Shown: positions 22,215 to 25,200, counted from the first letter of the stretch. The stretch is DNA of 29,412 nt from a virus (IMGVR_UViG_2609459833_000001), one strand, 5' to 3'. Translations and numbers: made by a program. The notes: generated by a model from the letters alone, not told the origin.

Positions 22215-25200
22215 ATGGCAGTAAAGATTTCAGGTGTACTGAAAGACGGCACAGGAAAACCGGTACAGAACTGCACAATCCAGCTGAAAGCAAAACGTAA
22301 CAGCACCACGGTGGTGGTGAACACGCTGGCCTCAGAAAATCCGGATGAAGCCGGGCGTTACAGTATGGACGTTGAGTACGGTCAGTACAGCGTTATTCTG
22401 TTGGTGGAAGGATTCCCGCCGTCACATGCCGGGACCATCACCGTGTATGAAGATTCCCGACCCGGTACGCTGAATGATTTTCTCGGTGCCATGACGGAGG
22501 ATGATGCCCGTCCGGAGGCACTGCGCCGTTTTGAGCTGATGGTGGAAGAGGTGGCGCGTAACGCGTCCGTGGTGGCACAGAACACGGCAGCCGCGAAGAA
22601 GTCAGCCAGTGATGCCGGCACATCTGCCAGTGAGGCGGCAACCCATGCGACTGATGCTGCAGGCTCAGCGCGTGCAGCCAGCACGTCAGCCGGACAGGCC
22701 GCGACGTCGGCTCAGGAGGCGTCTTCCAGCGCAGGAACGGCATCAACAAAGGCCACTGAAGCATCAAAAAGTGCTGCCGCTGCAGAGTCCTCAAAAAGCG
22801 CGGCGGCCACCAGTGCCGGTGCCGCGAAAACGTCAGAAACGAATGCTGCAGCGTCACAAAAATCAGCAGCCACTTCTGCATCCACTGCGACGACGAAAGC
22901 GTCAGAAGCCGCCACTTCAGCCCGGGATGCGGCGGCCTCAAAAGAGGCAGCGAAATCATCAGAAACGAACGCATCATCAAGCGCCAGTAGTGCCGCTTCC
23001 TCGGCAACGGCGGCAGCAAATTCTGCGAAGGCGGCAAAAACGTCCGAGACGAACGCCAGGTCTTCTGAAACGGCAGCGGAACAGAGCGCCTCAGCTGCGG
23101 CAGACTCTGAGACAACAGCTGCATCATCGGCCCGTGAGGCGTCCATTAAGGCAGAGGAGGCAGCAGTCAGTGCCACCGCCGCCGGAAAATCGGCAGAAAG
23201 CGCCGCATCATCCGCTTCAACAGCCACAACGAAGGCTGGCGAAGCCACTGAACAGGCCAGCGCAGCAGTGAGGTCTGCTTCCGCAGCGAAGACATCCGAA
23301 ACGAACGCGAAAGCGTCGGAAACCAGCGCAGAATCCTCAAAAACGGCTGCCGCATCGTCCGCCAGTTCGGCGGCATCATCGGCATCATCGGCGTCTGCTT
23401 CAAAAGATGAGGCGACCAGACAGGCGTCAGCAGCGAGGGGCAGCGCCACGACGGCATCCACGAAGGCGACAGAGGCTGCTGGCAGTGCGGCAGCGGCAGC
23501 ACAGAGCAAAAGTACGGCAGAATCCGCAGCAACGCGCGCCGAGACAGCAGCAAAACGGGCAGAGGATATTGCATCCGCCGTGGCGCTTGAGGATGCGAGC
23601 ACGACGAAAAAGGGGATAGTACAGCTCAGTAGTGCGACTAACAGCACTTCCGAGTCACTGGCGGCAACACCAAAAGCCGTTAAGGCCGCGTATGACCTGG
23701 CTAACGGGAAATACACCGCACAGGATGCAACGACAGCACAGAAAGGGATAATCCAGCTAAGCAGCGCGACCAACAGCACGTCTGAAACGCTTGCCGCGAC
23801 ACCAAAGGCAGTAAAAGCAGCCAATGACAATGCTGAGAAACGTCTGCAGAAAGATCAGAACGGTGCGGATATCCCTGGCAAAGATACCTTTACGAAAAAT
23901 ATTGGTGCCTGCCGTGCCTTCGGTGGGTCAGTAAGCACAACAACAGGAAACTGGACGACTGCACAGTTTATCGAGTGGCTGGATTCTCAGGGAGCATTTA
24001 ACCATCCATACTGGATGTGCAAGGGTTCCTGGTCTTATGGCAATAATAAAATCATTACTGATACTGACTGCGGTAATATTCATCTCGCCGGAGCTGTCAT
24101 TGAAGTAATGGGGATAAAGTCAGCGATGACGATCCGCATTACCACACCGACCACCTCCACTGGTGGTGGAACAACTAACGCCCAGTTTACCTATATTAAT
24201 CACGGAACAGATTATTCACCTGGCTGGCGAAGGGACTATAACTCCAGAAATAAGCCAACGGCATCAGAGATCGGGGCGTTACCGTCAGGTGGAACAGCAG
24301 TATCATCAGTTAATCTGGCTTCAAAAGGTCGGGTAACCGCGCTGACAGACAATACGCAGGGGGCAGCAGGTCTTGAGTTATACGAGGTGTATAACAACGG
24401 ATATCCAACAGCGTATGGAAATATCATTCACCTGAAAGGGATGACAGCCGTTGGCGAAGGTGAGTTACTCATCGGCTGGAGTGGTACAAGCGGTGCTCAT
24501 GCTCCGGCATTTATTCGTTCACGACGGGATACGACCGACGCAAACTGGTCGCCGTGGGCGCAGCTTTACACCTCGGCTCATCCTCCTGCAGAGTTTTATC
24601 CAGTCGGTGCACCAATCCCGTGGCCATCAGATACCGTTCCGTCTGGTTATGCCCTGATGCAGGGGCAGACTTTTGACAAATCTGCATACCCGAAACTTGC
24701 AGTTGCTTATCCGTCAGGCGTGATCCCTGATATGCGTGGCTGGACGATTAAGGGCAAGCCCGCCAGTGGTCGGGCCGTATTATCTCAGGAACAGGACGGC
24801 ATTAAATCGCACACCCACAGCGCCAGCGCATCCAGTACGGATTTGGGGACGAAAACCACATCGTCGTTTGATTACGGAACCAAATCCACGAATAACACCG
24901 GGGCGCATACCCATAGTATTAGCGGGACCGCAAATAGTGCCGGTGCGCACCAACACAAGAGTTCCGGTGCATTTGGTGGCACGAACACGAGCATTTTCCC
25001 TAATGGTTATACCGCGATTTCAAATCTAAGCGCGGGGATTATGAGCACAACAAGCGGTAGTGGCCAGACTCGTAATGCAGGGAAGACATCATCAGATGGT
25101 GCTCATACCCACTCGCTGTCCGGCACTGCTGCAAGCGCAGGCGCACATGCACATACTGTCGGTATTGGTGCTCATACGCACTCCGTTGCGATTGGTTCAC

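Follow-up and report, generated by a model that had tools for sequence, protein, structure and literature searches.

The window, by which we mean the whole stretch of 29,412 nucleotides analysed here, is the arm of a lambda-like E. coli prophage that carries the late genes, with terminase, head and tail genes running up to J and lom (Table 1). These are followed by a side tail fibre gene, stf, and by tfa, which encodes a tail fibre assembly chaperone. The order J, lom, stf, tfa places stf at the position held by the side tail fibre gene in a lambda-like tail cluster, and its product carries the N-terminal Pfam family of Stf proteins, PF08400. In the same Pfam search PF03406 and PF07484 were also found in the stf product, and PF02413 in that of tfa. 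The stf reading frame opens with a GTG; the ATG at 22215, two codons further on, is the start used in RefSeq and in phage annotations, gives a protein of 1024 aa and is probably the true start. At the DNA level the window tfa shows 95% identity to both tfaR and the tfa of phage mEp460, and its counterpart in E. coli W is annotated as tfaQ. Downstream of tfa lie genes for a SAM methyltransferase, a tfa fragment, an alpha/beta hydrolase and an IS3-family transposase. The nested and antisense reading frames within 23830-24620 are short (63-68 aa) and without support, and were disregarded.

Table 1. Features of the side tail fibre locus, with base composition where calculated (positions count from the first nucleotide of the window)
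Feature	Residues (aa)	Position (nt)	Strand	Evidence or remark	GC	GC3
J		18067-21480		precedes lom in the window
lom		21551-22150		PF06316, E 8.7e-123
stf, side tail fibre gene	1026 aa from GTG	22209..25289	+	ORF list
N-terminal tail-attachment domain	3-136	22215..22616	+	Pfam PF08400 phage_tail_N, E 1.4e-71
Ala/Ser/Thr-rich shaft	137-463	22617..23597	+	composition	0.614	0.508
Two Phage_fiber_2 repeats and conserved linker, putative left recombination junction	464-556	23598..23876	+	Pfam PF03406
Central block, composition	541-804				0.497	0.451
Replaced cassette versus K-12 stfR		23876..24564	+	DNA breakpoints, pairwise blastn
Domain A, globular, Mu S' / P1 Sv' / P2 H type	557-697	23877..24299	+
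Domain B, ending in connector RSRRD...WSPWAQLYT	698-797	24300..24599	+
Collar and outgoing needle strand	798-906	24600..24925	+	Pfam PF07484; HxH 868, 900
Collar, composition	798-862				0.554	0.492
Needle, composition	863-1026				0.518	0.494
Hypervariable tip head cassette	907-959	24926..25085	+	divergence versus mEp460, StfR and PhiR42_1
Needle return strand and C-terminus	960-1026	25086..25286	+	HxH 966, 980, 989, 998
tfa, tail fibre assembly chaperone	194 aa	25289..25873	+	Pfam PF02413 Caudo_TAP, E 2.7e-45	0.479	0.431

The first three segments of the fibre are of familiar kinds. The N-terminal domain is 98.5% identical to that of StfR and 91% identical to that of lambda Stf, and it matches a solved 94-aa chain described as 'Tail fiber protein' (9E7M, E 1.3e-51). 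The shaft that follows consists of 37% Ala, 23% Ser and 12% Thr; Tandem Repeats Finder detected no exact DNA tandem repeats in stf, and the bias of the shaft is one of composition. PF03406 is present in two copies within aa 464-548 (E 6.2e-37), and this Phage_fiber_2 segment matches the constant part of Mu S (5YVQ).

A preliminary description of this DNA had singled out positions 23830-24620 (791 nt, aa 541-804) as a central module foreign to the StfR-type fibre, citing peptides now located at aa 557-573 (nt 23877-23927) and aa 780-796 (nt 24546-24596). Pairwise blastn against K-12 stfR showed DNA homology over 22215-23875, its absence from 23876 to 24564 and its return at 24565. At the protein level, aa 1-565 and 766-1024 are 85.8% and 77.6% identical to K-12 StfR, respectively, while the gap between them is unmatched. 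Specifically, StfR (K-12 Rac) and Ur-lambda Stf share with the window fibre segments of the shaft, a Phage_fiber_2 repeat and the linker up to the motif NGADIP, as well as the collar (97% identity for StfR, 94% for Ur-lambda) and the HxH needle (76% and 62%). In between, StfR carries an unrelated block of 354 aa with a Gp34_trimer domain (PF21446, E 3.4e-27), and the middle of Ur-lambda Stf is shorter and likewise unrelated. The central segment gave no match to Ur-lambda Stf, and neither domain A nor domain B matched StfR or Ur-lambda Stf. Between about aa 549 and 799 of the stf product nothing in Pfam scored above threshold; a Gp34_trimer hit in the central block, at 19.6 bits against a cut-off of 27, was sub-threshold and not used. 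The breakpoints against stfR, together with the missing match to lambda Stf, bear out the earlier view of a mosaic fibre whose centre differs from that of StfR, just as its N-terminus and collar (94-97% identical) are those of lambdoid Stf proteins. The block itself stands, and its borders had been drawn too wide, the exchanged segment being about 45-55 nt narrower on each side.

Two domains make up this block. Domain A matches the solved fibre protein S' of phage Mu (PDB 8JU3, E 4e-68), with 70% identity to Mu Sv' and 80% to both P1 Sv' and P2-like H. The AlphaFold monomer, computed from an alignment with 30 homologues, is confident over this domain (pLDDT 85-95), and domain A matches the solved Mu S' domain in sequence and in predicted fold. 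Homologues of domain A follow both P2-type (PF12571) and lambda-type (PF08400) N-termini, and precede at least three distal ends, namely that of Mu S', one resembling Mu S in P2-like H, and the gp37 needle; they are also located ahead of Collar or gp37_C-type ends. This pairing with varied distal ends argues against domain A as the determinant of specificity.

Domain B is 73.6% identical to aa 77-163 of P1 Sv' and 60% identical to aa 532-629 of Gifsy-2 Stf. In P1 Sv' it lies upstream of A, the reverse of the order in the window fibre, which shows that the two domains move as independent units. Both match many PHROGs tail-fibre families. As an AlphaFold monomer domain B is poorly modelled (pLDDT 32-62). 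Over its last ~32 aa it is similar to the final part of the second Mu S' domain (hhalign probability 45%); homology of the whole of domain B to that second domain was rejected, since blastp and hhalign support is restricted to this connector motif of about 32 residues. Taken together, the centre of the fibre is neither unusual nor new: P2 H, Mu S' and P1 Sv' share this known block, for which 8JU3 provides a solved structure.

Both borders of the block map to conserved sequence. The left junction sits within the linker that carries the NGADIP motif, which is identical in StfR and P2-like H up to this motif, and StfR departs directly after it. The linker is also found in P1 Sv', and looser versions occur in Mu Sc and Mu Sv'. 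The right junction falls within the RSRRD...LYT connector, just upstream of the collar. Because the junctions lie in conserved linkers, a single NGADIP copy is present and no gix- or pix-like site was found at the junction, the block would most likely have been acquired via recombination inside the short, conserved linkers found on either side of fibre domains.

The exchange of Stf genes among unrelated phages is a well-documented case (PMC3945230, which cites Montag 1989 and Haggard-Ljungquist 1992), and the same source ascribes stf exchanges to Din-type invertases. An enzyme of this family, of the Pin, Gin or Cin type, might accordingly have installed the block at a fibre-gene crossover site, of which the present arrangement would be a fixed relic. 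Phage Mu has two copies of the NGADIP motif, one closing the constant part and one opening Sv', separated by a gix site coding for IIQNLGLQE, and the homology of Mu to the window starts 26 nt past the G-segment boundary. In addition, the same fibre is followed by tfaQ and the serine recombinase gene pinQ in E. coli W, mEp460, PhiR42_1 and K-12 Qin. Against this route, the window junction has one NGADIP copy, in frame, and the right junction also lies in a conserved connector, as homologous exchange predicts. Moreover, a search of the window for the gix-like core AAACCNNGGTTT with up to two mismatches returned 14 matches, against 11.4 expected by chance, with none at the left junction and none in stf upstream of nt 25009; the window contains no match to the e14 pix repeat, and no invertase or recombinase gene was found among the ORFs downstream of stf. 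The window fibre thus has neither the crossover sites at its junction nor the adjacent Din-family invertase gene of an invertase-switched fibre, in contrast to Mu and P1, where the block is part of a segment that can invert between gix or cix sites. The NGADIP/FTKNIG DNA of the window can be likened to the Mu gix region at the level of the protein motif only, and a relic invertase site at the left junction was rejected as functional, the pattern being at chance level and the pix repeat absent. We therefore regard installation by an invertase as unlikely in the window, although an older invertase-mediated origin of the block is possible.

The distal end of the fibre is of a different kind. The Collar domain proper spans aa 800-847 (E 4.6e-11), and aa 796-1026 as a whole match the tip of T4 gp37 (PDB 2XGF, E 1.7e-83). 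The identity to gp37 is 80.5% over aa 796-913, drops to 21% over aa 914-965 and rises again to 77% over aa 966-1026, so that a collar, an HxH needle and a variable head between conserved flanks appear as in a gp37-type tip. Seven HxH motifs (aa 868, 900, 914, 966, 980, 989 and 998) align one-to-one with those of gp37 (7/7), which in T4 coordinate seven iron atoms along the needle (PMC6957217). On this homology the HxH repeats of the window fibre are almost certainly metal sites, and the metal bound by the needle would be iron, with the histidines of three chains providing octahedral coordination. The suggestion of a metal-binding fibre tip is therefore sustained, as a feature that was already known. 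The tip head, which forms the second homology gap versus StfR, occupies the position of the specificity region mapped in gp37 to aa 932-965 (PMC9659904). As judged from this correspondence, the tip head (aa 907-961) is probably the determinant of receptor specificity.

The distribution of these segments among relatives bears directly on the function of the block. Over its full length the gene is 99.8% identical in DNA, and 99.9% in protein, to that of WP_000279140.1, a 'phage tail protein' of E. coli W with identical modules in identical order; near-identity to a single known Stf, which the preliminary description had held to be incompatible with its reading, is thus what we observed. We searched 5426 complete E. 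coli genomes for the gene and its parts. At least 80% of the length of stf was found in 636 of them and at least 80% of the 791-nt region in 800, while the tip head of the window occurs in 994, K-12 derivatives included, where the copy in Qin is 100% identical. The stfQ remnant of K-12 Qin itself matches the window at 100% identity from nt 24334, a position within domain B, through to the end of the gene. E. coli genomes also contain more distant versions of the block, with 84-85% DNA identity. Among isolated phages, whose Stf proteins include some 92-94% identical to that of the window, two comparisons are especially informative. The mEp460 (mEp460_ev081) stf is 96.4% identical in DNA over 22215-24925 and again from 25093, and diverges just at 24926-25092; its central block is 98.8% identical. 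In PhiR42_1 domains A and B are 100% identical, aa 907-961 are 29% identical, and the rest of the protein is 94-100% identical. It is the tip head, and not the central block, that varies among these otherwise identical natural fibres.

These data do not support the earlier proposal that shuffling of the central block alters adsorption specificity, as the block is 99-100% identical in PhiR42_1 and mEp460, and the tip head alone sets these fibres apart. One could nonetheless envisage the A and B block as a receptor-binding or lectin-like module, recognising for instance the LPS core or O-antigen, the swap of which would change the host range. A homologous block does lie in the invertible variable part of S' in Mu and P1, domain A is confidently predicted to fold as a globular domain, unlike a simple fibre repeat, and the E. 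coli block variants have diverged. Furthermore, receptor targeting mediated by the Stf of Gifsy-1 is reported to depend on O-polysaccharide production (PMC12312913). Conversely, domain A is conserved at 70-80% across P2-like H, Mu S', P1 Sv' and Stf, whose tips and hosts differ, near-isogenic natural fibres vary in the tip head instead of the block, and binding by T4 has been mapped to its gp37-type tip (PMC6957217, PMC9659904). On balance, we consider a receptor-binding role of the block distinctly unlikely. Slimmer still is the chance that A and B provide a second binding site in mid-fibre, for example for an LPS or O-antigen sugar, with two receptors engaged in series; if this were true, exchange of the block would adjust host range independently of the gp37-type tip.

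The preliminary description had also characterised the block as a module of lower GC, and we compared its composition with that of 246 windows of the same length taken from the head and tail genes of the prophage. A GC content as low as that of the block is seen in 2% of them, and a GC3 as low in none (0/246; mean 0.675, minimum 0.542). GC3, though, already steps down at about aa 137, and stays at 0.43-0.54 over the remainder of stf and in tfa. The high GC of the shaft is due to its 37% Ala and 23% Ser codons, which raise GC2 to 0.78, and at silent sites the block (GC3 0.451) is only slightly lower than its flanks (0.49-0.54). The composition change is therefore real, yet it marks the whole distal fibre region rather than the block; low GC and GC3 with respect to the prophage are confirmed, while the contrast with the shaft is partly an amino-acid effect. 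That there is no true mosaic at all, the apparent module being a composition artefact of the adjoining Ala/Ser-rich shaft, would fit the codon-position-2 origin of the shaft GC and the small GC3 difference, but is refuted by sharp breakpoints versus stfR and lambda stf, which are independent of composition, and by the block's own homologues in P1, P2-like, Mu and Gifsy-2 fibres, and has next to no chance of being right.

In conclusion, all together these data indicate that stf very probably encodes an intact lambdoid side tail fibre of the StfQ type, built as a modular chain, of which K-12 Qin keeps the 3' end only. As we propose it, the chain would consist of a lambda-type N-terminal attachment domain, an Ala/Ser-rich shaft, two Phage_fiber_2 repeats, the two-domain block A and B, which corresponds to the region singled out at the start and is similar in kind to parts of myovirus fibres (P2 H, Mu S', P1 Sv'), and a T4 gp37-type collar and needle with seven putative HxH metal sites and a short hypervariable tip head. 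The role of the Mu S' domain is itself judged from its place in the fibre alone. The A and B block would most likely have a structural role, as a piece of shaft or a knob that sets the spacing of the trimer and keeps it in register. Receptor choice would most likely depend chiefly on the tip head (aa 907-961), which the downstream Tfa would help to fold.

Related systems differ from this arrangement in several respects. In the E. coli W and K-12 Qin loci tfaQ is followed by pinQ, whereas the window tfa differs in its last ~7 codons and is followed by the methyltransferase, tfa fragment, hydrolase and IS3-family transposase genes. The Stf proteins of PhiR42_1 and mEp460 have the architecture of the window fibre, with N-terminus, shaft and collar 93-100% identical, but a specificity cassette unlike that of the window (PhiR42_1 head 29% identical, mEp460 needle 73%). 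Mu S', P1 Sv' and P2-like H are myovirus fibres, and their N-termini and distal tips are unlike those of the window protein. T4 gp37, for its part, has a collar and a six-stranded needle as in the window, with a chaperone gene downstream in both cases; in the window the head is longer and 21% identical, the scaffold is that of a siphovirus side fibre, and the chaperone is of the Tfa (Caudo_TAP) type.

Reports of tail-fibre module exchange among lambda, P2, Mu, P1 and T4 go back to about 1989-1992, and the complete gene, its central block and such module shuffling are all already known. RefSeq, hundreds of E. coli genomes and isolated phages already contain the exact gene, and the locus has little value as a discovery. 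Its practical yield is a nucleotide-level map of the modules, in which the block is delimited by the NGADIP linker on the left and the RSRRD...LYT connector on the right, and the tip head forms a cassette of 160 nt. Such a map could help in designing chimeric Stf proteins with which to engineer the host range of lambda-based particles.

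Compared with the fibres of the isolated lambdoid phages mEp460 and PhiR42_1, the stf gene of the window differs in one segment only, the gp37-type tip head, which represents a second mosaic cassette inside this gene. This segment is 100% identical to the stfQ remnant of the K-12 Qin prophage, and it was found in 994 of the 5426 E. coli genomes. As a mosaic cassette, the tip head is sharper than the first, central one.

Features of the tail fibre region and prophage edge (window coordinates)
Feature	Position	Strand
stf ORF, mechanical call	22209 (GTG start)	
gp37-type tip head, second mosaic cassette inside stf	24926-25085	
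SAM-dependent methyltransferase	25928-26596	-
101-aa ORF with Caudo_TAP fragment	26653-26958	+
Alpha/beta hydrolase ORF	27142-28734	-
IS3-family transposase ORF	28719-29375	-

As for the 5' end of stf, in RefSeq and phage records the homologous protein begins at an ATG two codons downstream of the GTG (22215; MAVKISG...).

Both domains of the central block, A and B, are also present in phage P1 Sv' (L009, the P1 comparison DNA, 3362-4919), but in reversed order, B then A, with other fibre repeats between them. Phage Mu S' (L008, the Mu comparison DNA, 1665-1760) has two copies of the NGADIP linker motif, one closing Sc and the other opening Sv', with the gix site TTATCCAAAACCTCGGTTTACAGGAA, which codes for IIQNLGLQE, in between. 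The fibre of the window has only one copy of the motif, as though the stretch with gix were missing.

Downstream of tfa, the related prophages of E. coli W and K-12 (Qin), as well as mEp460 and PhiR42_1, carry the pinQ invertase, while in the window its place (25928-26958) is taken by the methyltransferase and the 101-aa ORF. The C-terminal half of the 101-aa ORF matches part of the tail-fibre-assembly family Caudo_TAP (E 4.8e-17). Over 500 E. coli genomes have the same layout after tfa. At the prophage edge, the hydrolase ORF overlaps the end of the transposase ORF, and the GC content around the two (27142-29375) falls to 0.31-0.45.

In gene J, whose product is the central tail fibre, the 3' end (20900-21500) codes for the C-terminal part that binds the receptor. 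The GC content of this portion drops to about 0.46, compared to 0.56 across the entire gene, which suggests that it is a further exchanged host-range segment.
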